Source of the DNA: Prochlorococcus marinus str. MIT 9201
GTDB taxonomy: Bacteria > Cyanobacteriota > Cyanobacteriia > PCC-6307 > Cyanobiaceae
Assembly: GCF_047305125.1 (NCBI RefSeq)
Contig: NZ_CP138977.1
Reading direction: 5' to 3' (one strand)
DNA length: 24,000 nt
Under the pieces are notes generated by a model that did not search any database, was not told the origin of the DNA, and was given only the letters and a program-made list of their open reading frames with translations. The translations under genes and the position numbers were made by a program. This document shows positions 5,659 to 19,499 of the stretch, piece after piece (the stretch's first letter is position 1; each line of letters starts with the position of its first letter).

Positions 5659-5704
5659 AAAAAAAAAGAGGGTCTTATCCCTCTATGTTAGATCGACTGT
5701 CAAT
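5659..5704 (-). promoter_or_regulatory. Composite junction element copy 1 (block + TAACAT + hairpin + T9)
   Basis: Minus strand: ATTGACAGTCGATCTAACATAGAGGGATAAGACCCTCTTTTTTTTT. The hairpin is AGAGGG/CCCTCT. It lies ~200 nt upstream of the GT2 gene. Confidence 0.6.
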
Positions 5705-5738
5705 CTTATTTAAAATAGCGGTGCAAGTAGTAAGCGTT

Positions 5739-5831
5739 TTATTTTTTAGAGGTCATTTTGAAGGTTAAGTACGCAAAGCCACCTAGTAATAACAAACTAA
5801 CAACCCCATAAGCTATTGCTATGCCGTACAT
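5739..5831 (-). CDS. Small hydrophobic peptide, 30 aa (MYGIAIAYGVVSLLLLGGFAYLTFKMTSKK)
   Basis: Manual translation; ATG start; single TM-like segment. Below the ORF-track length cutoff. Confidence 0.35.
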   Translation of the reverse strand: MYGIAIAYGVVSLLLLGGFAYLTFKMTSKK

Positions 5832-5852
5832 ATTCTGACTATTGTTTACTTG

Positions 5853-6242
5853 CTAATCCCAAAGAGACAGATCTGAATCTCCTGTTGATCTTTGCATCCA
5901 ATGAATTTTCCAAATCCCATTAATCTTTTTGAAGATAGAAGTTACGGTTGGCAAATCATCATTAGGAGTTCCTTTGTAGGAGAATTTTGCCCCAAGAGTA
6001 AAAACACACATTGCTACATCGGCAGAAAGAAATTCAAACTTATGAATTTTTGTAATTTCTGCTTTTTCCTGAACAACATCACCAGAACTCATCATTTCCT
6101 CGAATCCCTTTGCACTTATTGGATTCCCGCTAGGTCTGATAAGTAAAAAATCTGCAGTGGCATTATTTACAAAAAATGAGCCCATTTTCTGCGGTGTTGC
6201 CAACTCATACAACATCGATTCAATTGTTTCTCTATCTGTCAT
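5853..6242 (-). CDS. NTF2-fold / SnoaL-like (DUF4440-like) protein
   Basis: 129 aa. The pattern ...DFLLIRPSGNPIS...DVAMCVFT...NGIWKIHWMQRS is typical of the NTF2-like superfamily. Confidence 0.6.
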   Translation of the reverse strand: MTDRETIESMLYELATPQKMGSFFVNNATADFLLIRPSGNPISAKGFEEMMSSGDVVQEKAEITKIHKFEFLSADVAMCVFTLGAKFSYKGTPNDDLPTVTSIFKKINGIWKIHWMQRSTGDSDLSLWD

Positions 6243-6284
6243 AAAAAAAACTTATTGCCCCTTATTTTAGATCAACTGTCAATT
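6243..6284 (-). promoter_or_regulatory. Composite junction element copy 2 (hairpin decayed)
   Basis: Minus strand: AATTGACAGTTGATCTAAAATAAGGGGCAATAAGTTTTTTTTATG. The T-run abuts the start codon of 5853..6242. Confidence 0.55.
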
Positions 6285-6462
6285 CTTTTTTTAGTTTAAA
6301 AATTGCAAGATGGCACTTGGGTGTAATAGGGGGAGCTAAGTGACGATCTCATACTATTTCTGGCGATCGCAAGGCATGATTTTGAGACTCAAATACGTTC
6401 CAAAAACAAAGAAAACATTAGTTATAATCAATATGCTTATCTTTTTCTCAATTTTACATACA

Positions 6463-6509
6463 AGTGCATTGGGAGCACTTGGTCGCAGGTTGGAATCCTA
6501 TCGCCCAGA
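6463..6509 (+). repeat. Partial tRNA-Pro(UGG) 3' fragment, copy d (degenerate)
   Basis: agtgcattgggagcacttggtcgcaggttggaatcctatcgcccaga carries several substitutions relative to copy b. Confidence 0.7.
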
Positions 6510-6707
6510 CTCTAATAATCCAAGTCATAGAATTGTTTCCCAAACTGTCTTTTTTATAGTTACATTTAAGAATAATGAGGCTGAGCGAGTTTCGAAAGAG
6601 ATTCCGCCATACTTTGCATAACTTTGCCGAATGATATCGCTCAAAATGGATATGAAATTCACAAAATAATCACAATAATTCGTATGATTGAAAAAACATT
6701 AATCATA

Positions 6708-6881
6708 ATGAAATCTATTCTTGCAGATAAAAGAACAAAAGCAATATTAGGAATTGGTTTAATAGCTATTGGTATTGGCGCAATTTCAAAAAAGTTTATA
6801 CGCTATCCAACTGGAGGATGTATGAAAGGTACTCAAGAATTGACTTTAAATAAAGAGATAAAAAACAAGATCTTTATTTAA
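6708..6881 (+). CDS. Hypothetical small membrane protein (57 aa from the internal ATG)
   Basis: The ORF track lists 6624..6881 with a TTG start. ATG 6708 gives MKSILADKRTKAILGIGLIAIGIGAISKK... with one TM segment. Convergent with 6898..7311. Confidence 0.3.
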   Translation: MKSILADKRTKAILGIGLIAIGIGAISKKFIRYPTGGCMKGTQELTLNKEIKNKIFI

Positions 6882-6897
6882 CGAGTAAGTGTTTCAC

Positions 6898-7311
6898 TTA
6901 CTCAATAATAATTGATCCGCCCGTTCCAAAAGGTGCATGAGGAGAGCAAACATAATAGTATTTGCCTTTAGATACGCCCTTTGTATTCCATGATAATGTT
7001 CCATTTTGAATCCCTGGAGTACCAGAAAGTATTCCTGTGGTTATCTGATCACCACTCCCACGAGAAAATTCAGTCTTTATATAAAAAGGATGACGAGATG
7101 CATCAATATCAAAGATGATTATATCTCCTTTATTAACAGTGACTGTAGGATCATTTCCACTTAAAGGTCCGTTCCTATCAGTTCCACTCAAGATATAGTC
7201 ACGATAACCCTCTGCTGATACGTCTATTTTAAATGTTTCTGAATCTGCAAAAGCTGATCCTGAGAACCCTATGAGCAAAGGTAGTAAAAAAATAGAACGC
7301 ATAATTTTCAT
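6898..7311 (-). CDS. Secreted cupredoxin-like (plastocyanin/azurin-fold) protein
   Basis: Signal peptide MKIMRSIFLLPLLIGFSGSAFA. RHPFYIK and the C-terminal YYYVCSPHAPFGTGGSIIIE align with the plastocyanin Y-x-x-x-C-S-P-H-x4-M-x-G motif. Confidence 0.7.
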   Translation of the reverse strand: MKIMRSIFLLPLLIGFSGSAFADSETFKIDVSAEGYRDYILSGTDRNGPLSGNDPTVTVNKGDIIIFDIDASRHPFYIKTEFSRGSGDQITTGILSGTPGIQNGTLSWNTKGVSKGKYYYVCSPHAPFGTGGSIIIE

Positions 7312-7334
7312 ACTATGTATATGTAAATAGTAAG

Positions 7335-7379
7335 AAAAAAAAGGAGCTAATTGCTCCTTATTTTAGATCGACTGTCAAT
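7335..7379 (-). promoter_or_regulatory. Composite junction element copy 3
   Basis: Minus strand: ATTGACAGTCGATCTAAAATAAGGAGCAATTAGCTCCTTTTTTTT. The 7-bp stem is AAGGAGC/GCTCCTT. It lies upstream of 6898..7311. Confidence 0.6.
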
Positions 7380-7384
7380 CGTGT

Positions 7385-7516
7385 TTAATATAGCAGTGCA
7401 AGTAGTAAGCTTCCCATCTTCTTCTGTTTTTTATATTTAAAAATAAGTTTGTTCAATTCGAAATAACTAATAACAGCAAAAAAGGTATAAATGGACATAC
7501 AAAAGAGGGTAGTCAT
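7385..7516 (-). CDS. Small hydrophobic peptide, 43 aa (MTTLFCMSIYTFFAVISYFELNKLIFKYKKQKKMGSLLLALLY)
   Basis: The track ORF 7385..7585 is trimmed to an internal ATG because its 5' part reads through element copy 4. DNA-level paralogue of 19365..19454. Confidence 0.4.
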   Translation of the reverse strand: MTTLFCMSIYTFFAVISYFELNKLIFKYKKQKKMGSLLLALLY

Positions 7517-7543
7517 AACCTCTAATGTAGATCGATTGTCAAT
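7501..7543 (-). promoter_or_regulatory. Composite junction element copy 4
   Basis: Minus strand: ATTGACAATCGATCTACATTAGAGGTTATGACTACCCTCTTTT. It starts just after the stop of 7548..7814. Confidence 0.55.
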
Positions 7544-7547
7544 CGAA

Positions 7548-7814
7548 TTATTTTGTTTTAAGTTCAGGTTCGTACACAGCACCATTGCAAACTGCTACCG
7601 CAATACTTTCTTTTGATGCTTTATCCCAACTTTTTAGTTCCATCTCATATTTATCAATCCAATGAAAAGTTTTTTTAAAGCATTGATTCCAATAAAATGC
7701 TTTTTTTGAAATAGGAATCAAGGAAATAAAAATGAGTACTATTGCAGTTGTAGATGTAATTACACAATATTTGATGATTTTTGGGCCTTTATTAGGAGAC
7801 ATGAAAAAGAGCAT
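7548..7814 (-). CDS. Hypothetical membrane protein (88 aa, or 84 aa from the second ATG)
   Basis: ORF track. One TM segment (VITSTTAIVLIFISLIPI); no family recognised. Confidence 0.5.
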   Translation of the reverse strand: MLFFMSPNKGPKIIKYCVITSTTAIVLIFISLIPISKKAFYWNQCFKKTFHWIDKYEMELKSWDKASKESIAVAVCNGAVYEPELKTK

Positions 7815-7846
7815 TTTATCCCTCTCATTTTAGATCAACTGTCAAT
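7804..7846 (-). promoter_or_regulatory. Composite junction element copy 5
   Basis: Minus strand: ATTGACAGTTGATCTAAAATGAGAGGGATAAAATGCTCTTTTTCATG. The TGA stop of 7842..8021 lies inside the TTGACA. Confidence 0.55.
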
Positions 7847-8021
7847 CATTTTTCTCTTGTATCTTCTTTAGTCTTTCGTATTCAACATGTAGAACACCCA
7901 AACGCCAAGCATCTTTTAATCCTTTCACACCTCCCATTAATAGCTTTGCATCTGCAGGGGAATGTGACTTAATATTCAAGAAATCTTTTTGCCAAGATTT
8001 GTCATACCATTTATTAGTCAT
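7842..8021 (-). CDS. Hypothetical soluble protein, 59 aa (MTNKWYDKSWQKDFLNIKSHSPADAKLLMGGVKGLKDAWRLGVLHVEYERLKKIQEKND)
   Basis: Manual translation; one codon below the track cutoff. Third gene of the chain 8273->7842. Confidence 0.45.
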   Translation of the reverse strand: MTNKWYDKSWQKDFLNIKSHSPADAKLLMGGVKGLKDAWRLGVLHVEYERLKKIQEKND

Positions 8022-8034
8022 TCAATTTATTCCT

Positions 8035-8118
8035 TTAGTAATGCCAAAGTAACCAAAATAATCCACAGCCATAAATAATCCCTATCGTTAGAATTATTGC
8101 CAAAGAAAATTTTTTCAT
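8035..8118 (-). CDS. Small hydrophobic peptide, 27 aa (MKKFSLAIILTIGIIYGCGLFWLLWHY)
   Basis: Manual translation. Its ATG overlaps the TGA of the upstream ORF (ATGA). Paralogue of 13503..13571, sharing ...GII..CGLFWLL.HY*. Confidence 0.5.
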   Translation of the reverse strand: MKKFSLAIILTIGIIYGCGLFWLLWHY

Positions 8119-8273
8119 TTAATTAAAAATCTACCCATATCATTCATGAAAAACCAAATTGCTATTGAGAGATTTAATACTACTGTGATAGAAATGGATA
8201 TTATTAAAAACTTTTTACCAACTCCTGATTGATTTGAAGCTTTACCAGCAACTGAAATCGACTCAAGTTTCAT
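8115..8273 (-). CDS. Small membrane protein, 52 aa (MKLESISVAGKASNQSGVGKKFLIISISITVVLNLSIAIWFFMNDMGRFLIK)
   Basis: Manual translation. First ORF downstream of element copy 6. Confidence 0.45.
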   Translation of the reverse strand: MKLESISVAGKASNQSGVGKKFLIISISITVVLNLSIAIWFFMNDMGRFLIK

Positions 8274-8276
8274 ATC

Positions 8277-8318
8277 AAAAAGGGGTTAACTGAAGATTAT
8301 TCTAAATCAACTGTCAAT
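8277..8318 (-). promoter_or_regulatory. Composite junction element copy 6 (no clear hairpin)
   Basis: Minus strand: ATTGACAGTTGATTTAGAATAATCTTCAGTTAACCCCTTTTTGATATG. Confidence 0.5.
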
Positions 8319-8546
8319 CATTATTAACCAGAATTCACTGATCTAGTGCTTAGATAGTGATCAGCTACCTTTATCAAATTCAAAACTATAAGATAACGAA
8401 AAGGAGATACAAAGGGTAGAAGTTGAATATTTTAGTCATTATCAAACCGCTACCCGAAATTGCAATTTCGTTACAATCAAAAATAAATTTTCTCTACTAC
8501 TGTTGTCGTGTATTAACTGAAGTCAGTTATTAAAAAAGGGGACCCT

Positions 8547-8693
8547 CTAAACTTGTTTTGGAGCATAATCACAAATACCGAATTGCATACATTCCATTTG
8601 ATCATCAGATAGCTTTTTTTCAACTGAGAACATATCAAGCCAATTATCAACTGCTTTTTGAAGTTTATGTTTAATAGGATTTCTGCAAGTCAT
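8547..8693 (-). CDS. Hypothetical protein, 48 aa (MTCRNPIKHKLQKAVDNWLDMFSVEKKLSDDQMECMQFGICDYAPKQV)
   Basis: Manual translation. A canonical AAGGAGG (8700-8706) sits 6 nt upstream of the ATG. Confidence 0.45.
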   Translation of the reverse strand: MTCRNPIKHKLQKAVDNWLDMFSVEKKLSDDQMECMQFGICDYAPKQV

Positions 8694-8770
8694 AATTAAC
8701 CTCCTTTGATCTGGTATTTATCTAGTATCAGTCAAATATAAAAATCAAGAGTGCAAATACCTAAAAAATA

Positions 8771-8793
8771 AGAGGGCATTTATTCTGCCCTCT
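8771..8793 (-). terminator. GC hairpin (8-bp stem AGAGGGCA/TGCCCTCT) followed by a T-run on the minus strand
   Basis: Minus strand: AGAGGGCAGAATAAATGCCCTCTTATTTTTT. It resembles the hairpin part of the junction element but lacks the ATTGACAGTCGATC block. Confidence 0.4.
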
Positions 8794-8978
8794 TCGAGTC
8801 TTAGGTACCTCGCTATCCACAAAGTCGATGAAGTACTTTTGGCTACTGTACTATTTTTAATTCAAATGAATTCGAAAAGATATTCTTGACAACCACAAAG
8901 CACTTTTACTCGGGTAATAATACTCTATGAATTTCAAGTCAAAAGGAGGAAAATATAGATATAGATCTAGGAGGTCTT

Positions 8979-9161
8979 ATGAAACTATTCAATCAATTTA
9001 ACATTCTTCCAAGATACATAACGGCGTTTAATTATTCAGGATTAAACCTTAACGAAACTCCAAAAGAACTTGAGAAATGTAATCCTGATTTTCAAAACTT
9101 TTGGGAGAAAGAGTGTAGAGAACATCCAACAAATCAAAATTGTTTAATTTACTGTAACTGA
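8979..9161 (+). CDS. Hypothetical Cys-containing small protein (60 aa)
   Basis: ORF track. AGGAGG (8969-8974) sits 4 nt upstream of the ATG. First gene of a plus-strand operon. Confidence 0.55.
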   Translation: MKLFNQFNILPRYITAFNYSGLNLNETPKELEKCNPDFQNFWEKECREHPTNQNCLIYCN

Positions 9162-9200
9162 GTTATTAATTTTTATTCTTTAATTAAATAAGGAGGTTTT

Positions 9201-9350
9201 ATGAAATTAACTACACCATTCACAATCCTCAATCAAAATTTCCGAGAAACGGATTTGATTAAGGAAGCAATGAATAACAGAAGATTAGCAACTGAAAGAT
9301 TGCATTTAGATTATAGAAAAATGTATAAAAACCACCAATTTCCTTATTAG
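9201..9350 (+). CDS. Hypothetical protein, 49 aa (MKLTTPFTILNQNFRETDLIKEAMNNRRLATERLHLDYRKMYKNHQFPY)
   Basis: Manual translation. AGGAGG (9191-9196) sits 4 nt upstream of the ATG. Confidence 0.5.
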   Translation: MKLTTPFTILNQNFRETDLIKEAMNNRRLATERLHLDYRKMYKNHQFPY

Positions 9351-9356
9351 TAATTA

Positions 9357-9470
9357 ATGGGATTTTTAAATGATCTTTGGAATAATCAACCAAATATACT
9401 TATTGGAGTAGCTTTAGCGACATTTGTATTGTTAGGGATTTATACAAAATTACTCGATATTTATCAATGA
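9357..9470 (+). CDS. Small membrane peptide, 37 aa (MGFLNDLWNNQPNILIGVALATFVLLGIYTKLLDIYQ)
   Basis: Manual translation. Clear paralogue at 15136..15249. Confidence 0.6.
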   Translation: MGFLNDLWNNQPNILIGVALATFVLLGIYTKLLDIYQ

Positions 9471-9538
9471 AAATTAACTCGCAAGGATGGGGCTTAATTT
9501 TTAGTATTGGTTCAATTATTTGTTTGTTAATTATTTAA
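9467..9538 (+). CDS. Small hydrophobic peptide, 23 aa (MKINSQGWGLIFSIGSIICLLII)
   Basis: Manual translation. It has an ATGA overlap with the upstream ORF and a TAATG overlap with the downstream ORF. Paralogue on the minus strand at 13418..13489. Confidence 0.55.
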   Translation: MKINSQGWGLIFSIGSIICLLII

Positions 9539-9795
9539 TGGAGAAATTAGAAAAATTTACTCTTATCAATAAAGATAGGTCAAGAATAAAAGTATTTGAA
9601 CCATTTGAGGATGTATCAAAGCCTTGTCCAGGTATTGATGCAATACTGATTAGCTATGGATGCGTTTATAAAAAATTAAGCAAACCAGTAATGAAAGGTA
9701 GCAGGGTAGAAACTATTGAAGCTGCAAGAAAAGAATATGCAGAATTATTGAAAGAAGGTTGGAAGAAGACCAGTATTTTTAGAAGTTATTTTTAA
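9538..9795 (+). CDS. Hypothetical 85-aa protein (paralogue of 18017..18274; possibly WGR-like)
   Basis: The track ORF 9520..9795 is trimmed to the ATG overlapping the preceding stop. Shares FTLINKDRSRIKVF / YWLINSNRTEVKRF and A-x-[KE]-[EI]-Y-x-x-L-L-x-x-GW-x-K with 18017..18274, which has the same length. Confidence 0.6.
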   Translation: MEKLEKFTLINKDRSRIKVFEPFEDVSKPCPGIDAILISYGCVYKKLSKPVMKGSRVETIEAARKEYAELLKEGWKKTSIFRSYF

Positions 9796-9862
9796 TCTTT
9801 AGACTATTGCATTTGCATAATTTCCCACCTCTGTTAATTTTAATGGGCTTCAATAAGTTCAA

Positions 9863-10078
9863 ATGCAAGATCAAAGAATTGAAAAGATAGCAGCTGTTGC
9901 GGTAAACATGACTAAGGTGCTGGTAATAATTTTTCTAGGCTTTGTAGAAGTATTTAAAATTGGTAAATTACTTAGAGAGAAGTTAGATGCTGAATTTGAG
10001 GTTTCCCGAAAATGGGCTTCACAAGCTTATTCAATCCTAAAAAAACGACAAGCGGAACGAAAAGCAGCGGGAGTTTAA
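9863..10078 (+). CDS. Hypothetical protein with one TM segment (71 aa)
   Basis: ORF track; no family recognised. Confidence 0.45.
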   Translation: MQDQRIEKIAAVAVNMTKVLVIIFLGFVEVFKIGKLLREKLDAEFEVSRKWASQAYSILKKRQAERKAAGV

Positions 10079-10083
10079 ATTTT

Positions 10084-10179
10084 TTATCTCACAAAATAAA
10101 TAATCCCACCAACAAAGGTACTACCTACAAGTAGCAAAACCATAAGAATTGCAATTAGTTTTGGTAAACTACCAATCAT
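10084..10179 (-). CDS. Small hydrophobic peptide, 31 aa (MIGSLPKLIAILMVLLLVGSTFVGGIIYFVR)
   Basis: Manual translation; single TM-like segment. Confidence 0.35.
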   Translation of the reverse strand: MIGSLPKLIAILMVLLLVGSTFVGGIIYFVR

Positions 10180-10546
10180 TTTTAAAAACCAATATTGTAT
10201 TTAGGATTCGTAATAAAAATAATTAGATTTAAAACAAAGTTTACAGGTAAATTTATAGGCTTCAAAAGTAGTAAAGCCATGCCCTTAGAAACGTTAAAAC
10301 CTTTATTCAAGAAAGTCATCAAAACCTATGTGAAAGTTTTATTACTATTCAAGCCAAGATAACACTTCTATGATTAACAACCAAATTAGATATTGGTTAT
10401 TTTAGTAAAAACCATCCTGATAGTTTGCTTTCAAGATTTCTTAATTCATGCATTATTAACAAATTTCTATTTTTAAAATTCTCTAGCGCAATATTAAATA
10501 AAAATCTGTGCTCAATAATTGTGGATAAATTGCCGGCAAAATATGC

Positions 10547-10960
10547 TTAGTTGAAAGGTGATGTGTTATTGGTAGGAGCTATTAGCAAGATTTCAAAAAT
10601 TATCCCAGTAAGGGCAATAGGTAAAACCCAAATACCAATAAATCTATGATCAAAAAATCTCAAATGATCGTTACCCTTGAAAACACTTCTCAAAGCAGTA
10701 AATAGTGTCTCTGGTTGCTTATATGTTGGACCATTTTTAGAGGGAGAATATGGTTTAACAAAAGCTGATGATGATGAAAACTTTACTAACTTTTTAATGA
10801 AAAAAATTGGCAACACCCATATAGCAACAAATCTACCACCTAACCATTGCCTCGCATTAGGAAGGGCATACTCTTTTATAGATTTATTCTCTGGCATTCC
10901 AGACTCTAAATCTCTATAAATATTTTCTAAAGAATCTTTATTATTTAATTCATTAATCAT
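10547..10960 (-). CDS. Hypothetical membrane protein with an internal repeat (137 aa)
   Basis: ORF track. The repeated segment is GGRFVAIWVLPIFFIKKL / DHRFIGIWVLPIALTGII. Preferred over the antisense ORF 10677..10919. Confidence 0.55.
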   Translation of the reverse strand: MINELNNKDSLENIYRDLESGMPENKSIKEYALPNARQWLGGRFVAIWVLPIFFIKKLVKFSSSSAFVKPYSPSKNGPTYKQPETLFTALRSVFKGNDHLRFFDHRFIGIWVLPIALTGIIFEILLIAPTNNTSPFN

Positions 10961-11548: not shown

Positions 11549-11582
11549 GGCATTTAAATAAATAAAAATTGATGAAATTAAA

Positions 11583-13489: not shown

Positions 13490-13502
13490 TTAATTTACTT
13501 CT

Positions 13503-13872: not shown

Positions 13873-13876
13873 AAAT

Positions 13877-14071: not shown

Positions 14072-14374
14072 ATGAGGAAATTATTTGCTGCATTCACCGT
14101 TTTCTTAAGTACGTTATTCATTTCTTCAAATTTAAATGCATCATCATTTAACTTGAAAAACGAAACTAATTATCTTACTAGTAATCTTTTAATTTCTTAT
14201 GGCGGCGGCGGCGGCGGTGGTGGTGGCGGAGGGAAGAATTCCGCAAAAGGCAGAGCGAAAGAAAAAGCAAAACTTTTATTTAAGAAAAGACAAGCAGCAA
14301 AAAAAGTTTCTGAAGGTTTACCTTTAACAGAAGAAGAAAAAAAGATCCTTTATTTTGATGAAATTGGAGATTAA
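14072..14374 (+). CDS. Secreted Gly-run / Lys-rich small protein (100 aa)
   Basis: ORF track. Signal peptide MRKLFAAFTVFLSTLFISSNLNA, a run of 11 Gly, and a basic tail. Confidence 0.6.
   Translation: MRKLFAAFTVFLSTLFISSNLNASSFNLKNETNYLTSNLLISYGGGGGGGGGGGKNSAKGRAKEKAKLLFKKRQAAKKVSEGLPLTEEEKKILYFDEIGD
14201..14233 (+). repeat. (GGN)11 trinucleotide run: (GGC)5(GGT)3 GGC GGA GGG
   Basis: Read directly from the sequence. A GC-rich microsatellite inside an AT-rich gene. Confidence 0.9.
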
Positions 14375-14395
14375 AAAAATTTAAAGGTCATAAAT

Positions 14396-14433
14396 AGAGG
14401 GTTTTATCCCTCTATATTAGATCAGCTTTTAAT
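14396..14433 (-). terminator. Composite junction element copy 8 (block degenerate: ATTAAAAGCTGATC); hairpin between convergent genes
   Basis: Minus strand: ATTAAAAGCTGATCTAATATAGAGGGATAAAACCCTCT. It lies between the stops of 14072..14374 (+) and 14443..14832 (-), so it is a likely bidirectional terminator. Confidence 0.5.
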
Positions 14434-14442
14434 ATTACCTAA

Positions 14443-14832
14443 TTAAAGTCTGCTGTAGCCTAATTTTGACTGAAAAACTTTAAAGGAAACACCTGTTCCT
14501 TTCATTACTTCGAGACATTTATCCCCAACTGTTCCATATACTTCAACAGTAAAATCATCAGCAAGTTTTGGATGCTCTTTTAAATATTCACCTATTGCTG
14601 GATTGGCCAAGTGAGCGATAAAAGCATCATCATTTTTATAAGCCTCAGACCACACAAAGTTCAGAGGATTTTCTGGATCCTGATCAAAAGTATGATGTAA
14701 CATTCCTGGCTCAACAGCCTTAACGGCTTTATCTGTTTTATCTGCAAGTTCTAAATACTCAGAAACTTTATTTTCTTTTACTGTGATTTTTGCTAAAAGA
14801 ATAAAAGGGGTATCTGCTCCGAAATTTGTCAT
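14443..14832 (-). CDS. ABM-domain (antibiotic biosynthesis monooxygenase-like, dimeric alpha/beta barrel) protein
   Basis: 129 aa. ...MLHHTFDQDPENPLNFVWSEAYKNDDAFIAHLANPAIGEYL fits the ABM pattern (H..D....f.f.E.y.d..A...H). Confidence 0.7.
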   Translation of the reverse strand: MTNFGADTPFILLAKITVKENKVSEYLELADKTDKAVKAVEPGMLHHTFDQDPENPLNFVWSEAYKNDDAFIAHLANPAIGEYLKEHPKLADDFTVEVYGTVGDKCLEVMKGTGVSFKVFQSKLGYSRL

Positions 14833-14871
14833 GAATAAAAATAGTTTTAATTATATTATTAATTTTTTAAT

Positions 14872-14914
14872 AAAAAAGAGGGTTTTATCCCTCTATGTTA
14901 GATCTACTGTCAAT
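14872..14914 (-). promoter_or_regulatory. Composite junction element copy 9
   Basis: Minus strand: ATTGACAGTAGATCTAACATAGAGGGATAAAACCCTCTTTTTT. Two mismatches relative to copy 1. It lies upstream of 14443..14832. Confidence 0.6.
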
Positions 14915-15135
14915 TATTAAAAATACCTCCTACGAGGTCTTCTAAAAAAATTGTCATTTTTAATGAAATTTGCTTTTATGAGTGAAGAGTTATTTTTATT
15001 ATGCAAATCTCATTTTTTGCAAAAGTAGTTTTTTTTAAATCTTTATTGTATTTCTGATTTATCAATCAAAAATAATATTTTGAGAAAAGTAATGAATAGA
15101 GCTAACAGAGCTAAAATTTTTAAACTTCCCAATTA

Positions 15136-15249
15136 ATGGAATTTTTAACTAATTTCTGGAATAATCAACCCAATACAGTTATTGGAATAGGTGTGGCAAT
15201 ATTTGTGTTATTAGGGATTTATATATCTTTACTCCAGACATACCAATAA
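15136..15249 (+). CDS. Small membrane peptide, 37 aa (MEFLTNFWNNQPNTVIGIGVAIFVLLGIYISLLQTYQ)
   Basis: Manual translation. Paralogue of 9357..9470. Confidence 0.6.
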   Translation: MEFLTNFWNNQPNTVIGIGVAIFVLLGIYISLLQTYQ

Positions 15250-15250
15250 G

Positions 15251-15568
15251 TTAGTTAATTATCTTTTTAATTTTTTCTAGATTCCATTTATCAAATATTA
15301 ATTTCATTTCTCTTTCGTAGTATCTTACTTTCTTAGCAAAAGGAAGTTGTTGAATAATTATCCCAAAGGGAAATTTAAAGAAAGAAGAGACATAAACAAT
15401 ATAAAACTCGACAAATGAAGGCTTTGGTGGGAGAGGTAAATTTTTTATATATGCCCAATCAATGCAGGGTTTTAGTTGCTTATCACTAGCGATAATATTT
15501 TTTTTACATCTCCACCAAGAGAATAGATAAATGCAAATAAAAATCGGTAACGGAAGAAGTCGCAACAT
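15251..15568 (-). CDS. Hypothetical membrane protein (105 aa)
   Basis: ORF track; no family recognised. Confidence 0.45.
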   Translation of the reverse strand: MLRLLPLPIFICIYLFSWWRCKKNIIASDKQLKPCIDWAYIKNLPLPPKPSFVEFYIVYVSSFFKFPFGIIIQQLPFAKKVRYYEREMKLIFDKWNLEKIKKIIN

Positions 15569-15598
15569 TAATTAAAAAGTTATTTCTTCAAGAGTTAT

Positions 15599-15796
15599 TT
15601 ATTCAGGATAAACAAACATCATACCTATCCCTGATATTTCTTTATCTTTTTTAAGAGAAAATTTTTTATTAGAATTCACGTAACCTGCATAATCTCGGGC
15701 ATCTGAAATTTTTTTATGTAATTCATCAGATATTCCAGCATGAACTGAAGTAGATAAAGTAAGTGCAGATATTGGTGGGAATAGCGGTCTTTTCAT
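15599..15796 (-). CDS. Hypothetical small secreted protein (65 aa)
   Basis: ORF track. Signal-like N-terminus. It starts 4 nt after the stop of 15800..16105. Confidence 0.4.
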   Translation of the reverse strand: MKRPLFPPISALTLSTSVHAGISDELHKKISDARDYAGYVNSNKKFSLKKDKEISGIGMMFVYPE

Positions 15797-15799
15797 TTG

Positions 15800-16105
15800 T
15801 TAATCACAACAATCGTCCTTTGTTAATGAAGCGGTCCAAGAGGTTTCCTCCATTGTTGACAAGTCAACTCTATGAGTTGCCATCCAGTCACCATTGGCTT
15901 CCACAAACTTTTGAACATTGCCTTCTGGAGCTTGATGAATAACAATTATTTTTTGAGGATCTTCCTTGCTTACTCCTCTGAAAAGTGGCTTAATATCAAA
16001 TTCTGAATGCCTTTTATCTGCTTCCGCACTATCAAATATTGCAGCCCATTCATCGAAAGTGCTTTCAATTTTAAAAGTAAACACGGAGGTAACTGAACAA
16101 GACAT
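15800..16105 (-). CDS. Small soluble protein (101 aa); paralogue of 19500..19778
   Basis: The track ORF 15800..16147 is trimmed to ATG 16103-16105 because the 5' extension reads through element copy 10. MSCSVTSVFTFKIESTFDEWAAIFDS aligns with MSIETTVFTFKISVPFEEWAAVYDS. Confidence 0.65.
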   Translation of the reverse strand: MSCSVTSVFTFKIESTFDEWAAIFDSAEADKRHSEFDIKPLFRGVSKEDPQKIIVIHQAPEGNVQKFVEANGDWMATHRVDLSTMEETSWTASLTKDDCCD

Positions 16106-16148
16106 AAAAAAGGAGCTAATTGCCTCTAATTGTAGATCGACTGTCAAT
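16106..16148 (-). promoter_or_regulatory. Composite junction element copy 10 (chimeric hairpin arms)
   Basis: Minus strand: ATTGACAGTCGATCTACAATTAGAGGCAATTAGCTCCTTTTTTATG. The 5' arm is of the AGAGG type and the 3' arm of the GCTCCT type. Confidence 0.6.
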
Positions 16149-16162
16149 CAGATGAATATTAT

Positions 16163-17107
16163 TTAAGATGCCCAATCGCAAGGTTTAGAGTATTTTTTAT
16201 AAATTTCAGCATGACCCTCTTGAACTAGCAGTTGTTGAAGATTCTCTCCATTAAGACTTAATTCACCTACGGTCCTTCCATACTTATCCTCAGTCACCCT
16301 ACGAATTGATACTTTCTCGCCCTTAATCATTTCATTTAAGAAATTTTTTGCCGCTATTGCCTCATTTGGCTTTGCTCTTTTCCCTTTTATTTCGGGAGTA
16401 TCGATACAAGCTAATCTTATTTTTTCGCCTTCACTTGAAGTACAGGTATCTCCGTCATAACAATCTTTGATTATAATTTCTCCATTCTCCGGTCTATTTG
16501 ATTTTCTACCAAGAGCTTCGCAGGCTTCCCCATCATTATCTCTATCAAGATAAGCGTGTCCTGCTTGGAGAAACTTTTGAGCTTCTGACCAATCACCAAT
16601 GTCTCCACATCTTTGTTTCTCTCTTTCTGATAAGGGGACTTTCTTACATTCTGGAAAGTCAGAAGCTTCAGACCCTTCATAAATACATGATATTTCACCA
16701 CTAGTGAAGTTATAGAAAAAAGAGGGTTGTTTTTTTAAATCTTCAGGAATTATTGATACAAGTGAAAAATTCTCATTACCAATACAGTTATTGCTTTCCT
16801 CATTATCAAATTCATAACCAATTAACTTTGAAGGGGTGAATGTTAACTCTCTTCCCAGAGAATTATTACTTTCGCACTCGATTTTTATATTTAAGATTGA
16901 ATTTGCAGCTATTACTTTCTCTGCTTTTTGGATAACTTCAAGAAATCTAGGTAAAGCAATAATTCCAAGGATTGAACATACTCCAATAACAGTTATCAAC
17001 TCAATTGAGCTAAAACCTACGTTTGATTTAGTTAATTTTTTAAATAAATACAACAAAAAAGGAATTTTTCTTATTAGTTTAAATCTGCTTTCAATTAAAT
17101 TAATCAT
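16163..17107 (-). CDS. Pilin-like N-terminus + Excalibur Ca-binding domain + staphylococcal-nuclease (SNase/thermonuclease) domain
   Basis: SNVG|FSSIELITVIGVCSILGIIALP gives the G/FxxxE motif plus a hydrophobic helix. CGDIGDWSEAQKFLQAGHAYLDRDNDGEACEAL is Excalibur-like. DGDT...IRLACIDTPE...EDKYGRTVGEL...LVQEGHAEIY matches the SNase motifs DGDT, RL.giDtPE and DkYGR. The true start may be an internal TTG giving a shorter leader. Confidence 0.8.
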   Translation of the reverse strand: MINLIESRFKLIRKIPFLLYLFKKLTKSNVGFSSIELITVIGVCSILGIIALPRFLEVIQKAEKVIAANSILNIKIECESNNSLGRELTFTPSKLIGYEFDNEESNNCIGNENFSLVSIIPEDLKKQPSFFYNFTSGEISCIYEGSEASDFPECKKVPLSEREKQRCGDIGDWSEAQKFLQAGHAYLDRDNDGEACEALGRKSNRPENGEIIIKDCYDGDTCTSSEGEKIRLACIDTPEIKGKRAKPNEAIAAKNFLNEMIKGEKVSIRRVTEDKYGRTVGELSLNGENLQQLLVQEGHAEIYKKYSKPCDWAS

Positions 17108-17160
17108 ATTGTTAAAACTAGTAAGAGTTTTTCTATAATTTCGCGGCTTAACCCCAAAGA

Positions 17161-17883
17161 CTAGTCAAATGTTTTTGAAGAGTTTTCTAGTAATAAATTT
17201 AGTTCTAAAAGTTCTTTTTTAGTAAATTCACGATATTTTCCTATTGGTACGTCTAATTTAATATTCATAATTCTTACACGCTTTAATGAAAGTACTCTGT
17301 AGCCTAATGACTGACACATTCTCCTAATCTGACGATTAAGTCCTTGCGTGAGTATGATCTTGAATTTTTTTGGTCCCAACTTTTCTACAAAACAATTCCT
17401 AGTTATGGTGTCTAATATTTCAACTCCATTACTCATCCTTTTAATAAACTCTCTACTAATCAAACGATTAACACTTACAATATATTCTTTTTCATGATTA
17501 TTTCTTGCTCTTAGTATTTTATTCACGATATTTCCATCATTAGTTAAAAAAATTAAACCCTCGCTGGGCTTATCCAATCTTCCAATAGGAAAAATTCTTT
17601 TAGGATATTTAATGAAATCTATAACATTATTGGGTTCTACTCTTGTATCAGTTGTGCAAACAATTCCAACAGGTTTATTAAAGGCTAAGTATATATTTTT
17701 TTGTTTTGATAATTTTTCTATTCTTTGACCTTTGACTTCTACTTGGTCATCTTCATCTACCTTGGCTCCAATCTTTGATATTTCCCCATTAATAGTAACT
17801 TTTCCTTCTTTAACTAATCTATCTGCAACTCTTCTAGAACAATAACCAACTTCGCTTAAATATTTATTTATCCTGGTAGCCAT
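17161..17883 (-). CDS. Pseudouridine synthase, RsuA/RluB/RluF family, with an N-terminal S4 domain
   Basis: RINKYLSEVGYCSRRVADRLVKEGKVTINGE is the S4 domain, and PIGRLDKPSEGLIFLTNDG carries the catalytic Asp motif. Confidence 0.9.
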   Translation of the reverse strand: MATRINKYLSEVGYCSRRVADRLVKEGKVTINGEISKIGAKVDEDDQVEVKGQRIEKLSKQKNIYLAFNKPVGIVCTTDTRVEPNNVIDFIKYPKRIFPIGRLDKPSEGLIFLTNDGNIVNKILRARNNHEKEYIVSVNRLISREFIKRMSNGVEILDTITRNCFVEKLGPKKFKIILTQGLNRQIRRMCQSLGYRVLSLKRVRIMNIKLDVPIGKYREFTKKELLELNLLLENSSKTFD

Positions 17884-17924
17884 ATTGGGTATTTCTTTTT
17901 ATCTCCCTAAATTATTTAATTAAT

Positions 17925-17953
17925 TACTTCTTATTTTAGATCAGCTGTCAAAC
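17925..17953 (-). promoter_or_regulatory. Composite junction element copy 11 (block + TAAAAT; hairpin decayed)
   Basis: Minus strand: GTTTGACAGCTGATCTAAAATAAGAAGTAATTAATT. It lies ~45 nt upstream of the pseudouridine synthase ATG. Confidence 0.5.
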
Positions 17954-18016
17954 TAAGTGAATATTAAAGACATTAGATTTAGATTAATATTAACCAGGGA
18001 TTTTTGGAGAGCGCAC

Positions 18017-18274
18017 CTAACTCTCTTTTTTTTTCCAAACTTCTTCAATTTTAGTCCATCCTTGGGAAAGTAATCTTTCATAAATTTCTCTTGCCAAATC
18101 TATATCTACTGAAACTGTATTTGTCATTACAGGTGGTTCTTTTCCGGATATGTCCAATATTTTTCCAGTATCCACAAACATATACTCGAAGACACCACTT
18201 ATACTCTTATCGTTTCTCATAAATCTCTTCACTTCTGTTCTGTTTGAATTAATCAACCAGTAAGATTTAGACAT
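18017..18274 (-). CDS. Hypothetical 85-aa protein (paralogue of 9538..9795)
   Basis: ORF track. See 9538..9795. It lies 32 nt downstream of the SRAP gene on the same strand. Confidence 0.6.
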   Translation of the reverse strand: MSKSYWLINSNRTEVKRFMRNDKSISGVFEYMFVDTGKILDISGKEPPVMTNTVSVDIDLAREIYERLLSQGWTKIEEVWKKKES

Positions 18275-18306
18275 TAATTAGGGGATAGAGTTAGTATGCA
18301 TTCAAT

Positions 18307-18945
18307 TTAAAACAAACTCATTTGATTAGTTTCTTTTTTGTTAATATTTTCTACTAACCATCCATCAGGTGACCAACCCATCATAATTGGAAGTAAACCA
18401 TTTAATTCAACAGTATCTTTAACCTGCTCAGTCCATTGCTCCTCTAAACCATTGGGAACAACAACAGGCATGCGATGATGAAAAGGTTTAATTAATTCAT
18501 TTGGTTCAGTTGTTAAGATACAGCAACTCTCTAACTCAGCGCCATCTGGAGAGGTCCACTTGCTCCAGATTCCTCCTAACCAAAACGTTTCATAATTCTC
18601 TTTTCGAATACGATATTTTTTTTCAAAAAACCCACTTGCTGGTATTAAACACCTTTTATATTTCCAACTTCCACTAAATAATCTTTTTTCTTCTATGCTT
18701 TCTGATCTTGCATTAAATGGTCTTGGCCTTTTTTTGTCAAATGGGTCGTAAGTCCAAGGTGAAATAAACCCCCATGACATGAAAGTAGTCTTAATTCTTC
18801 CTTCGTTTTTGACTACAAGTACAGGATCAGTTGGTCTTATTAAATTTTGAATATCATATCTAGTTTGAAGTCCCTTTGGATAATCTTGTTTCAGAATCTT
18901 TGGTAAATCATCAAACTTGGTTTTCAGCTCAAATCTTCCACACAT
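18307..18945 (-). CDS. SOS-response-associated peptidase (SRAP / YedK / DUF159) family protein
   Basis: The N-terminal MCGRF (catalytic Cys2) is the family hallmark, and the 212-aa length is typical. Confidence 0.9.
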   Translation of the reverse strand: MCGRFELKTKFDDLPKILKQDYPKGLQTRYDIQNLIRPTDPVLVVKNEGRIKTTFMSWGFISPWTYDPFDKKRPRPFNARSESIEEKRLFSGSWKYKRCLIPASGFFEKKYRIRKENYETFWLGGIWSKWTSPDGAELESCCILTTEPNELIKPFHHRMPVVVPNGLEEQWTEQVKDTVELNGLLPIMMGWSPDGWLVENINKKETNQMSLF

Positions 18946-18976
18946 TTATTTTTTAAAATCTTTTTAAAAACTCTTT

Positions 18977-19018
18977 AAAAATCGAGCTAATTATTCCTAT
19001 TTTAGATTGATTGTCAAT
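18977..19018 (-). promoter_or_regulatory. Composite junction element copy 12 (decayed hairpin)
   Basis: Minus strand: ATTGACAATCAATCTAAAATAGGAATAATTAGCTCGATTTTT. This is clearly a decayed AGGAGCAATTAGCTCCT-type copy. It lies upstream of the SRAP gene. Confidence 0.55.
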
Positions 19019-19144
19019 ATTCAATAATTAAAAAATATAAATCCTTTTTGATGGTCATAAAAGGGTCTTCATTTAATAGTTAAGAGAACATGTAGATATT
19101 GAAAAGTTTTCTCAAATTTTATTTCAATCTTACACAATTAATCT

Positions 19145-19294
19145 ATGACAGATCCTATCTTTTATTTATCAATGTTCCTTGGGCTGGGAGGAGTATATGT
19201 TTTAATATCTTCTTTCAATGATGATGATGATGATAGCGATGATGATGGAGAAAGAGATATTTATAATTTTGAATTAGCAAGCTTAGCCAAGTAA
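19145..19294 (+). CDS. Possible small protein, 49 aa, with a TM segment and poly-Asp tract (MTDPIFYLSMFLGLGGVYVLISSFNDDDDDSDDDGERDIYNFELASLAK)
   Basis: Manual translation; ATG start. Confidence 0.35.
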   Translation: MTDPIFYLSMFLGLGGVYVLISSFNDDDDDSDDDGERDIYNFELASLAK

Positions 19295-19350
19295 TTTACG
19301 AGATAGCAAAACTATAACAGGAATTAGTAAGACAAGTATTCTTCTCATTT

Positions 19351-19390
19351 TCAACTATTTTCAACTATTTTCTACTATTTTCTACTATTT
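19351..19390. repeat. 10-bp tandem repeat x4 (tcaactattt x2, tctactattt x2)
   Basis: Read directly from the sequence. It overlaps the 3' end of the small ORF 19365..19454. Confidence 0.9.
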
Positions 19391-19454
19391 TTAAAAATAA
19401 GTTTGTGTAGTTTGCAAAAACTAATAAAAGCAAGAGAAATGTATTAATTGTCAT
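19365..19454 (-). CDS. Possible small hydrophobic peptide, 29 aa (MTINTFLLLLLVFANYTNLFLKIVENSRK)
   Basis: Manual translation. DNA-level similarity to 7385..7516 (shared tttaaaaataagtttgt and aactaataa.agcaa). Confidence 0.3.
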   Translation of the reverse strand: MTINTFLLLLLVFANYTNLFLKIVENSRK

Positions 19455-19499
19455 TTTAAGAGGAGAGTGTTGCACCCTCTAATGTAGATCGACAATCAA
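19455..19499 (-). promoter_or_regulatory. Composite junction element copy 13 (TTGATT variant)
   Basis: Minus strand: ATTGATTGTCGATCTACATTAGAGGGTGCAACACTCTCCTCT. It begins directly at the TAA stop of 19500..19778. Confidence 0.5.

Follow-up and report, generated by a model that had tools for sequence, protein, structure and literature searches.

The stretch analysed here, referred to as the window (24,000 nucleotides in full), is an island in the genome of a cultured high-light Prochlorococcus and carries 13-14 co-oriented copies of an element of about 45 bp. These copies form an array of gene cassettes (Table 1), which is broken by about 5.3 kb without the element (8319-13590). The repeated composite element described in the earlier note proved to be real. 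A search for ATTGACAGTCGATC with at most 2 mismatches returned 11 matches, all on the minus strand, where 0.09 would be expected by chance, and none of 100 shuffles reached 11. A looser search (at most 4 mismatches over 16 nt) recovered two copies that had been described as decayed (14418-14433 and 17937-17952) and added a possible 14th (17080-17095). At this tolerance, the only plus-strand matches were at 5692-5707 and 7535-7550, with 4 mismatches each; both are palindrome echoes of copies on the minus strand.

Table 1. Features of the co-oriented cassette array in the window.
Feature	Position	Strand	Block	Hexamer	Hairpin and T-run	Surroundings
Whole co-oriented cassette array	5659..19800	(-)				
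First cassette of array, DUF3764	19500-19778		absent	TAAAAT, -10-like	decayed hairpin, T7 before ATG	
Element copy	19455..19500	(-)	ATTGATTGTCGATC (19487-19500)	TACATT	hairpin	ATG 19454 of 29-aa hydrophobic peptide ORF; TAA of upstream DUF3764 overlaps first base of block
Decayed copy	18977..19018	(-)	ATTGACAATCAATC	TAAAAT	degenerate hairpin	SRAP gene ATG (18945) 53 nt past hexamer
Decayed copy	17925..17952	(-)	TTTGACAGCTGATC	TAAAAT	no clear hairpin	upstream of pseudouridine synthase gene (ATG 17883)
Possible 14th copy, strongly decayed	17051..17095	(-)	ATTGAAAGCAGATT	TAAACT		start of SNase/Excalibur gene
Element copy	16106..16148	(-)	canonical	TACAAT	chimeric hairpin AGAGGCAATTAGCTCC, T-run	next ATG 16105, 101-aa DUF3764 (PF12594) protein
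Element copy	14872..14914	(-)	ATTGACAGTAGATC	TAACAT	type-A hairpin AGAGGGATAAAACCCTCT, T-run	ABM-domain gene start 62 nt past hexamer
Decayed copy	14396..14433	(-)	ATTAAAAGCTGATC	TAATAT	type-A hairpin, intact	between convergent genes; no minus-strand ORF downstream
Element copy	13875..13921	(-)	canonical	TAAAAT	type-B hairpin GAGGAGCAATTAGCTCCTT, T8	upstream of 93-aa DUF3303 protein (ATG 13872)
Element copy	8274..8318	(-)	ATTGACAGTTGATT	TAGAAT	weak hairpin	next ATG 8273, 52-aa ORF
Element copy	7803..7846	(-)	ATTGACAGTTGATC	TAAAAT	hairpin	next ATG 7802, 84-aa ORF; TGA of upstream 59-aa ORF inside block
Element copy	7499..7543	(-)	ATTGACAATCGATC	TACATT	hairpin AGAGGTTATGACTACCCTCT	next ATG 7498, 37-aa hydrophobic peptide ORF
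Element copy	7333..7379	(-)	canonical	TAAAAT	type-B hairpin AAGGAGCAATTAGCTCCTT, T8	upstream of 137-aa plastocyanin-like ORF (ATG 7311)
Element copy	6243..6283	(-)	ATTGACAGTTGATC	TAAAAT	hairpin with decayed 3' arm, T8	next ATG 6242, 129-aa DUF3804 protein
Last copy of array	5658..5704	(-)	canonical	TAACAT	type-A hairpin, T9	no cassette ORF after; glycosyltransferase gene begins at 5458, ~200 nt further downstream; 3'-end remnant of a cassette for a small peptide upstream (5705-5735)

The element comprises a conserved block, an abutting hexamer TAnnnT, a G+C-rich hairpin and finally a T-run, which in most cases reaches an ATG. Beyond what the earlier note had seen, the block is a 15-bp near-palindrome, (G)ATTGAC-A-GTCGATC, whose arms are asymmetric throughout (T left vs C right). 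The claim that the hexamer always fits TAnnnT held for all 14 blocks of the window, and the copies at 7335-7379 and 13877-13921 do differ at a single base. Outside the window, a cross-strain pattern search found 199 further copies at about 115 other Prochlorococcus loci. Arrays were co-oriented at 102 of 105 loci, and the lower quartile of the spacing was about 350 nt. TAnnnT lies directly 3' of the block in 199 of 244 blocks, and the block is exact in 55% of copies in a set ascertained by the hairpin. At one conserved locus (L003, L022 and L024), TAnnnT is missing and a strong terminator follows directly, hence the block can exist without a promoter. The element was found in 3 of 2.9 million viral contigs, and no earlier description of it was found in the searchable literature.

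Evidence for a promoter comes from the hexamer and its distance to the gene. In the hairpin-ascertained set, T1, A2 and T6 are conserved at 98%, 97% and 98%, respectively, while positions 3-5 vary. In about 105 of the 199 copies, an ORF of 40 aa or more opens with an ATG 21-31 nt past the hexamer (mode 24), and the T-run ends 0-3 nt before the ATG in most copies. The TTGACA of the block, which lies within the palindrome, does not form a canonical -35/-10 pair with the hexamer, as had been noted, given the spacing of 7 bp. No -35 element was found at 16-18 bp from the hexamer, which counts against a promoter, and canonical -35/-10 pairs are rarer in the region than expected (46 found vs 77 expected). 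The usual promoter type in Prochlorococcus is -10-only, and TAnnnT is probably a promoter of this kind. Transcription would then start about 7 nt past the hexamer, in the 5' arm or loop of the hairpin, and the downstream gene would have a U-rich leader of about 17 nt without a Shine-Dalgarno sequence.

The hairpin resembles an intrinsic terminator. An independent pattern scan classed four of the window's element hairpins as terminator-like (5684-5667, 7359-7341, 13901-13883 and 14894-14877), and the mean minimum free energy of the hairpins was -5.9 kcal/mol vs -2.5 kcal/mol in shuffles. Sixty-nine distinct stems form compensated series that pass through G.U, with 25 G.T pairs inside stems vs 2 A.C, many of the former representing one inherited type-B hairpin pair rather than independent events. 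Stems scored 5.24 vs 3.92 for arm-swapped chimeras. RNAalifold, run on a MAFFT alignment, gave no consensus structure, as the register differs between the two hairpin types; the covariation evidence therefore depends on our own structural anchoring. In about 57 of 179 scored copies (about one third), a same-strand upstream stop codon lies at -5 to +14 nt of the block, leaving no space for another terminator. The three such stops reported for the window were confirmed (a TGA within the block at 7846, a TAA overlapping it at 19500 and a stop 4 nt before it at 7543), as was the position of the 14396 copy between convergent genes. Judged from these features, the hairpin and U-tract would form only in RNA arriving from upstream and would end the transcript of the preceding cassette shortly ahead of the following ATG; such termination would leave each cassette transcriptionally insulated.

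The main addition to the earlier note is that insertion, loss and reshuffling of cassettes take place exactly at the element. In genome comparison, cassette boundaries each carry one palindromic block and homology between genomes stops exactly at the palindrome. Where the downstream gene is the same and the upstream gene differs, identity stays at background as far as -5 and reaches about 0.95 from block position 0 onward; where the upstream gene is the same and the downstream gene differs, it amounts to 0.75-0.85 as far as the block and then drops. The hairpin type and the variable hexamer bases of an element go with the downstream gene. Comparison of L068 with L085 and L114 revealed a clean insertion/deletion of a 351-bp cassette, bounded by the 16-bp direct repeat ATTGACAGTCGATCTA and with identical flanks. 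This cassette also occurs in another context in L038, compared with an empty site in L012; one cassette can thus occur between different neighbours. Cassette order in the window also differs from that in L006. Cassettes may be inserted, deleted and reshuffled by recombination between conserved blocks, with homologous recombination or short-repeat slippage as the likely mechanisms and a dedicated protein also possible.

On balance, we consider it fairly probable that the element combines a -10-only promoter with an overlapping intrinsic terminator and, in addition, acts as the junction at which the cassettes of a gene-cassette array recombine. Of the interpretations offered in the earlier note, the terminator-plus-promoter insulator appears best supported by the comparative evidence, owing to the -10-type conservation of the hexamer, its fixed distance to the ATG, hairpin covariation via G.U intermediates, abutting upstream stops and the coincidence of element and cassette junction. 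The attenuator or tiny RNA also proposed there is disfavoured, since the ORFs whose ATG the T-run abuts are real and conserved. If the preferred reading holds, each single-gene cassette carries its own start signal and stops its upstream neighbour. However, the block is closer to invariance than is usual for promoter-flanking sequence, and a promoter-terminator model alone is insufficient to account for this.

The palindrome could act as an operator, a crossover site or an RNA hairpin, and at about -27 to -13 it may additionally bind a dimeric regulator. The position fits a dimeric DNA-binding protein, as in the suggestion of the earlier note that the block is a dedicated regulator's operator. 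In a stronger version, which we regard as possible but doubtful, the block is above all an operator: a dimeric transcription factor, by the position of the site a repressor, would control through it an island-wide regulon induced, for example, by stress or phage infection, and cassette shuffling would be a by-product of block conservation. The inverted repeat abuts the -10 at invariant spacing, is far more conserved than the adjoining hairpin and varies most freely next to its dyad centre. However, no candidate DNA-binding protein was found in the window or in 43 cargo families, the T/C arm asymmetry is as compatible with a U.G pair or a single GATC site as with a homodimer site, and the block also stands beside a terminator where no -10 is present. 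The single palindromic regulator site of Prochlorococcus that was compared, CGRE1, is likewise a conserved promoter element of marine picocyanobacteria, bound by PMM1637 (GntR) upstream of yfr2 genes; it is an activator site of 21-22 nt, flanked by GTTA/GTTG and starting at -55 to -57 (Lambrecht et al., 2018, PMC6191309), and differs from the block in sequence, length and position. Alternatively, a dedicated site-specific recombinase might use the block as its core site, in an integron-like array whose cassettes leave as circles and can re-enter at any block. Each cassette has one almost invariant block that provides stop codons, insertion/deletion edges fall exactly at the 16-bp repeat, and several sites hold the same cassette. 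We nevertheless consider this unlikely, given that the window ORFs scanned contain no integrase or recombinase domain, that the block lacks attC architecture and, with 7-bp arms flanking one central base, is unlike a typical recombinase core, that the cassettes have their own predicted promoters, and that deletion between 16-bp direct repeats needs no enzyme.

It is quite improbable that the arrays are long polycistronic transcripts in which the hairpins act as intercistronic stability or processing elements and TAnnnT is a single-stranded AU-rich nuclease site between the block hairpin and the G+C hairpin. Of 6 copies folded as RNA, 4 do form the block hairpin GAUUGA-CAG-UCGAUC with its U.G pair, the frequent changes in the block (C9 to T, G10 to A) preserve pairing, and G.U is tolerated in stems. 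However, this block hairpin is weak with a loop of 3 nt, an RNA linker does not predict the -10 pattern T1-A2-n-n-n-T6, a G+C stem followed by T5-T9 has the shape of a terminator, and cassettes working in many different contexts favour autonomy. The high similarity of sequence before unrelated genes could suggest that the 45-bp unit moves by itself, as a MITE-like small mobile element or a mobile promoter that inserted independently before many genes, yet terminal inverted repeats and target duplications are absent and no orthologous genes were seen that differ solely by its presence or absence. The polymorphic unit is element plus gene rather than the element alone, and the tight T-run-ATG distance and the association of hairpin type and hexamer bases with the downstream gene also make this very improbable. 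T7-type promoters offer a loose likeness, with a specific 14-nt block, an AT-rich stretch and a purine-rich start. A promoter for the single-subunit RNA polymerase of a T7-like cyanopodovirus, expressing island genes during infection, would also suit the very high conservation; it is close to refuted and scarcely credible, as the 16-mer is absent from podovirus-like contigs among the 2.9 million viral contigs and from 50,697 phage genomes down to exact matches of 16-17 nt.

Among known systems, the promoter-early stem-loops (PeSLs) of T4-type phages are the closest analogue of the element. For PeSLs whose stem-loop lies downstream of the -10, promoter and terminator function have both been demonstrated, and crossovers have been mapped to their interior (PMC2839356); PeSL promoter, terminator and mini-circle activities have been measured (Arbiol et al., 2010, PMC2839356; Comeau et al., 2014, PMC4122927), whereas the activities of the element are predicted from sequence alone. 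Both are short, conserved promoter-plus-terminator composites with G-T pairs in stems, both are located at insertion, deletion and replacement breakpoints, and in both the cassette carries in its own expression signals. However, the PeSL promoter is a complete sigma-70 one (-35, N17, -10) and is accompanied by a Shine-Dalgarno sequence, whereas the element has a -10 only and its TTGACA is placed inside a palindrome; PeSLs also reside in phage genomes rather than a cellular chromosome. Membership of the element in the PeSLs was rejected on these grounds (no -35 at 17 bp, no Shine-Dalgarno sequence, cellular genome).

Integron cassettes and attC sites share with the element co-oriented single-gene arrays, one conserved and partly palindromic site per cassette that can contain stop codons, presence/absence exactly at that site and the same cassette in different contexts. 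Unlike integrons, the arrays show no intI, attI or Pc, the site has neither the R''-L''/L'-R' structure nor the GTTRRRY core of attC, and the cassettes have their own predicted promoter, with the site at the gene's 5' end alongside expression signals. Phage morons are autonomous promoter-gene-terminator units, as outlined in the discussion of them in PMC2839356. Like the cassettes as predicted here, each is a single gene inserted between other genes and equipped with a promoter and a terminator of its own. The cassettes differ in the nearly invariant block flanking every unit, whereas we know of no conserved flanking sequence that mediates the movement of morons. Tycheposons are multi-gene elements moved by an integrase at tRNA genes, and a term search of the main text of the preprint describing them found no such repeat (Hackl et al., preprint 10.1101/2020.12.28.424599). 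The element differs in bounding single small genes without an associated integrase; it occurs in the same kind of Prochlorococcus island as tycheposons and partial-tRNA sites, and all are proposed sources of variability. As a separate observation, four partial tRNA 3' halves lie within the window.

The repeated element in the window is real and strongly non-random. Each copy is headed by a near-palindromic block in the forms GATTGACAGTCGATC and ATTGACAGTCGATC, and the 14-mer ATTGACAGTCGATC has 11 matches in the window at no more than two mismatches, all on the minus strand, where 0.09 would be expected by chance. A relaxed block search recovered the two decayed copies described in an earlier note on this DNA (14418-14433 and 17937-17952) and added a candidate 14th block at 17080-17095. 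TAnnnT lies directly 3' of every window block, and most of these hexamers are followed by a G+C-rich hairpin and then by a T-run reaching the ATG; four of the element hairpins were scored as terminator-like by an independent pattern scan. Other details in the earlier note also stood on the window sequence: the copies at 7335-7379 and 13877-13921 differ by a single base, stop codons overlap the block, and the chimeric and decayed copies are as named. The window (G+C approximately 30%) encodes DUF2079, family-2 glycosyltransferase, DUF3804, DUF3764, DUF3303, ABM, SNase, pseudouridine synthase, SRAP and inverse-autotransporter proteins, and is in our judgement a typical Prochlorococcus genomic island. 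An Rfam search of the window (E up to 1) returned two sub-threshold chance matches only and no tRNA genes.

Scanning of ATTGACAGTYGATCTA across 185,579 species genomes identified at least 119 loci. Prochlorococcus genomes from single cells or isolates make up nearly all of the matches listed, and the few from other organisms are chance matches in which the rest of the element is absent. The window and the Prochlorococcus loci listed hold at least 244 blocks, with TAnnnT following directly in at least 199 (among the loci listed, TAAAAT 73, TAACAT 32, TAAACT 30 and TACAAT 24). To avoid ascertainment through the block, copies were also gathered by their hairpin (n = 129); the exact block was present in 71 of these and a block with at most three mismatches in 103, and their logo reads tG-ATTGACAGTCGATC-TAaaaT. 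In this collection T1, A2 and T6 of the hexamer are conserved at 97-98% and the inner bases vary, which is the conservation pattern of a -10 box. Together with the preceding G, the block forms a 15-bp inverted repeat, GATTGAC-A-GTCGATC, in which one pair is non-complementary (T against G) and GATC occurs once.

Among the loci listed, about 105 of 199 copies have the ATG of an ORF (40 aa or longer) 21-31 nt past the hexamer, with a mode of 24, and in 102 of 105 loci the array runs in one orientation. A same-strand upstream ORF ends -5 to +14 nt from the block in roughly a third of the copies scored (about 57 of 179), and its stop codon is sometimes the block's own TGA. No Shine-Dalgarno sequence was found between the T-run and the ATG, the only similar purine run being the 5' stem arm, 18-24 nt upstream of the ATG. 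The aligned copies have no conserved -35 at 16-18 bp; TTGACA is 7 bp from TAnnnT, and positions -9 to -4 ahead of the block are merely T-rich. Canonical sigma-70 pairs are rarer in the region than expected (46 found vs. 77). A canonical promoter with TTGACA as the -35 and the hairpin loop as the -10 was rejected, given that the loops (GATAAA, GCAATT) do not have the TAnnnT pattern; the sole TTGACA-16-AATAAT arrangement is in a decayed copy at 19018. Cyanobacterial -10-only promoters are recognised by a conserved T-A-n-n-n-T close to the gene and at a set distance from it, and the element has this feature. The motif does not occur in the 5'-end tables of PMC2518516.

Two main hairpins follow the hexamer, AGAGGG-ATAAAA-CCCTCT and AAGGGGC-AATTA-GCTCCTT, with numerous intermediates, and they nearly always accompany the block (55 of 58 and 60 of 65 cases for the two types). 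Their mean MFE is -5.9 kcal/mol, compared with -2.5 kcal/mol in shuffles. The 69 distinct stems include two compensated series, one running through AAGGGGC/GCCCCTT, AAGGGGC/GCTCCTT (G.U), AAGGAGC/GCTCCTT, AAAGAGC/GCTCTTT and AAAAAGC/GCTTTTT, and the other through AGAGGG/CCCTCT, AGAGAG/CTCTCT and AAAGGG/CCCTTT. Real stems scored 5.24 and arm-swapped chimeras 3.92. RNAalifold on a plain MAFFT alignment produced no consensus structure, since hairpins of the two types do not line up with each other, and structure-anchored counts were used instead. Internal non-Watson-Crick stem pairs comprise 25 G.T and 2 A.C, many of the G.T being one inherited pair; the excess of G.T over A.C points to a stem that would form in RNA of the sense strand. 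At the sequence level the hairpin has the G+C-rich stem-loop, direct U-tract and location downstream of a stop codon of an intrinsic terminator. The exact type-A hairpin AGAGGGATAAAACCCTCTTTT was also seen without the block in two unrelated low-G+C phage contigs (L145, 8868-8888; L147, 8585-8605), where it lies between convergent genes and is likely a terminator. This suggests that the type-A sequence is simply a good terminator that has arisen more than once.

Homology between the window and the compared loci consists of single-gene pieces ending at elements, and the order of these pieces varies between genomes, with a different arrangement in locus L006, for example. One downstream gene family sits behind up to six upstream families. 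When the downstream gene is the same and the upstream gene differs, identity remains at the background of about 0.3 until -5 and is about 0.95 from block position 0; when the upstream gene is the same and the downstream gene differs, identity is 0.75-0.85 up to the block and lower after it. The hairpin type and the inner hexamer bases track the downstream gene. Loci L085 and L114 are arranged as U-block-TACCAT..., and locus L068, with identical flanks, as U-block-TAAAAT-hairpin-ATG-(102-aa ORF)-CACG-block-TACCAT.... The extra unit in L068 is 351 bp long and has the direct repeat ATTGACAGTCGATCTA at both ends; the same cassette recurs between other neighbours in L038, at a site that is empty in L012. 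The spacing of elements has a lower quartile of about 350 nt among the loci listed, and the cargo comprises 43 families, mostly small proteins of unknown function. On the evidence of these alignments, the element is shown to act as the junction between cassettes.

A conserved variant at L003 +1349, L022 and L024 (reverse-complement position 2881) has the canonical block with no TAnnnT; the block is followed directly by a strong terminator, GCTAGGGGC-TTTTA-GCCCCC plus T6, where an ABM-like gene ends, with the next gene about 90 nt on. This variant shows that a block need not be accompanied by the -10. In the first cassette of the window array, a -10, a decayed hairpin and a T-run are present and the block is absent. 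Since there is a block without a -10 (at one locus) and a first cassette without a block, a junction role fits better than a purely promoter-linked role.

The best-supported mechanism is the one first put forward in the earlier note, a compact terminator-plus-promoter insulating each small gene cassette, whose promoter and terminator roles we infer from sequence. The element would provide a -10-only promoter, the -6 to +12 region of which doubles as the terminator of the preceding cassette. Transcription would start about 7 nt past the hexamer, inside the 5' hairpin arm or loop, so that the stem would form only in RNA arriving from upstream. As the promoter would overlap the neighbour's terminator, each cassette would be self-expressed and shielded from read-through. 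Cassettes may be inserted, deleted and reshuffled via recombination between shared blocks; deletion between the 16-bp direct repeats would require no special enzyme, and insertion would require a circular intermediate or donor DNA carrying two flanking elements.

The palindrome itself may be an operator, the core of a recombinase site, or a small RNA hairpin in the 3' UTR of the upstream gene. Neither the scanned ORFs of the window nor the cargo proteins include a candidate regulator or recombinase. Recombinase domains were absent from the window ORFs scanned, and a 286-aa ORF near the partial tRNAs, with no Pfam match (E up to 0.01) and no PDB sequence match (E up to 1), starts with hydrophobic residues and resembles a secreted protein more than a recombinase. 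The palindrome could fold as RNA, with one U.G pair. We regard it as rather improbable that the palindrome is specifically bound by a recombination or regulatory protein and that the element is an integron-like exchange system of high-light Prochlorococcus, shared with T4-like cyanophages. Single-gene cassettes in such a system would be self-expressing and self-insulating, and T4-like cyanophages would ferry them between host islands and phage hyperplastic regions; if true, this would put a concrete mechanism behind the 'small cassettes of genes' by which coexisting Prochlorococcus subpopulations differ.

The closest known system is the promoter-early stem-loop (PeSL), and the element is best described as a PeSL-like motif of a cellular genome. 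PeSLs separate small ORFs in the hyperplastic regions of T4-type phages; they are conserved and combine a promoter with a terminator. Activity of both kinds has been measured for them, crossovers have been mapped within the motif, and circular cassette intermediates have been described (PMC2839356; PMC4122927). The element shares with them, judging by sequence, a stable stem-loop at or overlapping the promoter that would terminate upstream transcripts, and a location between small ORFs of a hypervariable region at breakpoints of insertion, deletion and replacement. However, the PeSL promoter is sigma-70-like, with -35 and -10 about 17 bp apart, its 3' end is a Shine-Dalgarno sequence plus start codon, and its home is the genome of a T4-like phage, whereas the ATG of the element comes directly after the T-run and the window belongs to a Prochlorococcus isolate. 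The element is thus not a PeSL member, having no -35/N17/-10, no Shine-Dalgarno sequence and a cellular residence.

The element also follows integron logic, but attC architecture and an integrase are absent. Among the window ORFs scanned there is no integron integrase that would head the array together with attI and Pc, and instead of the attC R''-L''...L'-R' imperfect hairpin with a GTTRRRY core at the cassette 3' end, the site is a 7-1-7 palindrome, then the -10, then a separate terminator hairpin. A MITE or REP-type repeat was rejected, as the copies share one orientation and keep a tight position relative to ATGs, and a gene is part of the mobile unit; terminal inverted repeats, target-site duplication and insertion independent of gene starts were not found. 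The PMM1637 regulator site CGRE1 is a 21-22-nt palindrome with GTTA/GTTG flanks that starts 55-57 nt upstream of the transcription start (PMC6191309), and membership of this regulon was rejected on the sequence and position given there, which are unlike those of the block. Neither the motif strings nor a link of PeSL-like elements to Prochlorococcus islands was found in the openly searchable (non-subscription) literature, and the element was not found in the mobile-promoter literature. It likewise did not appear in the supplementary tables of the Prochlorococcus ncRNA paper, or by term search in the main texts of the preprint on tycheposons and the papers on sRNA prediction, Red Sea mdRNA-seq and cyanomyovirus comparison.

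The full element occurs in only three of 2.9 million viral contigs (L135, L136 and L125). L135 and L136 are uncultured IMG/VR contigs with cyanomyophage-type genes, and L135 matches cyanomyophage genomes by blastn. L135 (1-1101, 1102-6609) has three copies of the element and, immediately ahead of uvsX, two cassettes of host-like type, with 2OG oxygenase, gp41 and mazG following, at about 75% identity to P-SSM2; its DUF3764 cassette is 87.5% identical to window 19450-19785, and a search of viral contigs for DUF3764 relatives gave this contig alone. In L136, an element (548-563) and a 41-aa cassette come right after a putative phoH gene (566-1270), and its genes, read by eye, are putative phoH, RNase H (rnh) and a denV-like glycosylase. 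L125 (IMGVR_UViG_3300030060_005467, 85 kb) has the element at 45-60, downstream of three co-oriented ORFs that belong to no PHROG family and, by tblastn, match nothing in 50,697 phage genomes. The L135 and L136 elements may mean that cyanomyophages really carry island cassettes, or these contigs may be assembly chimeras. Cultured phages lack the motif down to exact matches of 16-17 nt, and a near-identity search of the window against phages gave no match. A phage RNA-polymerase promoter was rejected because copies are absent from phages.

Prochlorococcus populations differ mainly in small gene sets within genomic islands, and to our knowledge the cells are without most classical gene-transfer tools. 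Integrase-driven tycheposons account for the movement of large blocks and not for the turnover of single small genes. A near-invariant 16-bp junction that flanks each cassette and carries the cassette's promoter and the neighbour's terminator would offer a testable mechanism for this turnover, and would also account for the immediate expression of an incoming gene, with its neighbours undisturbed, in a very compact genome. The element would carry the PeSL principle over from T4-type phages to a cellular genome, and the few element-bearing phage contigs are a hint of exchange between host islands and the hyperplastic regions of phages. It would also be a compact natural promoter-terminator part, in a group of organisms for which we know of no genetic system.

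Further features of the window, with positions on the whole stretch
Feature	Position	Strand	Remarks
Hydrophobic-peptide cassettes, 29-37 aa (MTINTFLLLL..., MSIYTFFAVI...)	7385-7498, 19365-19454	-	Shared C-terminus ..GSLLLALLY
Pseudogenised 3' remnant of hydrophobic-peptide cassette	5705-5735		Before the last element of the array
~82-nt repeat, four copies	624-705, 1060-1141, 2430-2511, 6451-6532	+	62-100% identical
Inverse-autotransporter beta-domain genes	20047-21177, 22231-23367	+	Tandem paralogues, 2184 bp apart
First 300 nt of the inverse-autotransporter paralogues, upstream region included	19973-20272, 22157-22456		99% identical
98-aa ORF	11778-12074	-	Cytochrome b559 (psbE/psbF) transmembrane-helix match, PF00283, E 3.7e-8
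10-nt unit (TATTTTCAAC / TATTTTCTAC)	19346-19393		Four to five tandem repeats, overlapping the 3' end of the 29-aa peptide ORF
69-nt repeat	8015-8083, 13483-13551		84% identical; at or upstream of two minus-strand ORF starts

An 'upstream extension' common to the copies at 5704 and 7379 was considered as an extra module of the element and rejected, as it is really the conserved C-terminus of the small-peptide cassette. The ~82-nt repeat includes the 3' half of a tRNA (T-arm GGTTCGAATCC plus acceptor end), and the window holds no intact tRNA gene; the four copies look like the partial-tRNA attachment-site remnants known from Prochlorococcus islands and tycheposons, and one of them falls within the cassette array. 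The 69-nt repeat is a second, distinct shared 5' region without the block. The cytochrome b559-like ORF lies within an element-free 2.5-kb stretch that is conserved in two of the compared loci (L006 and L020).
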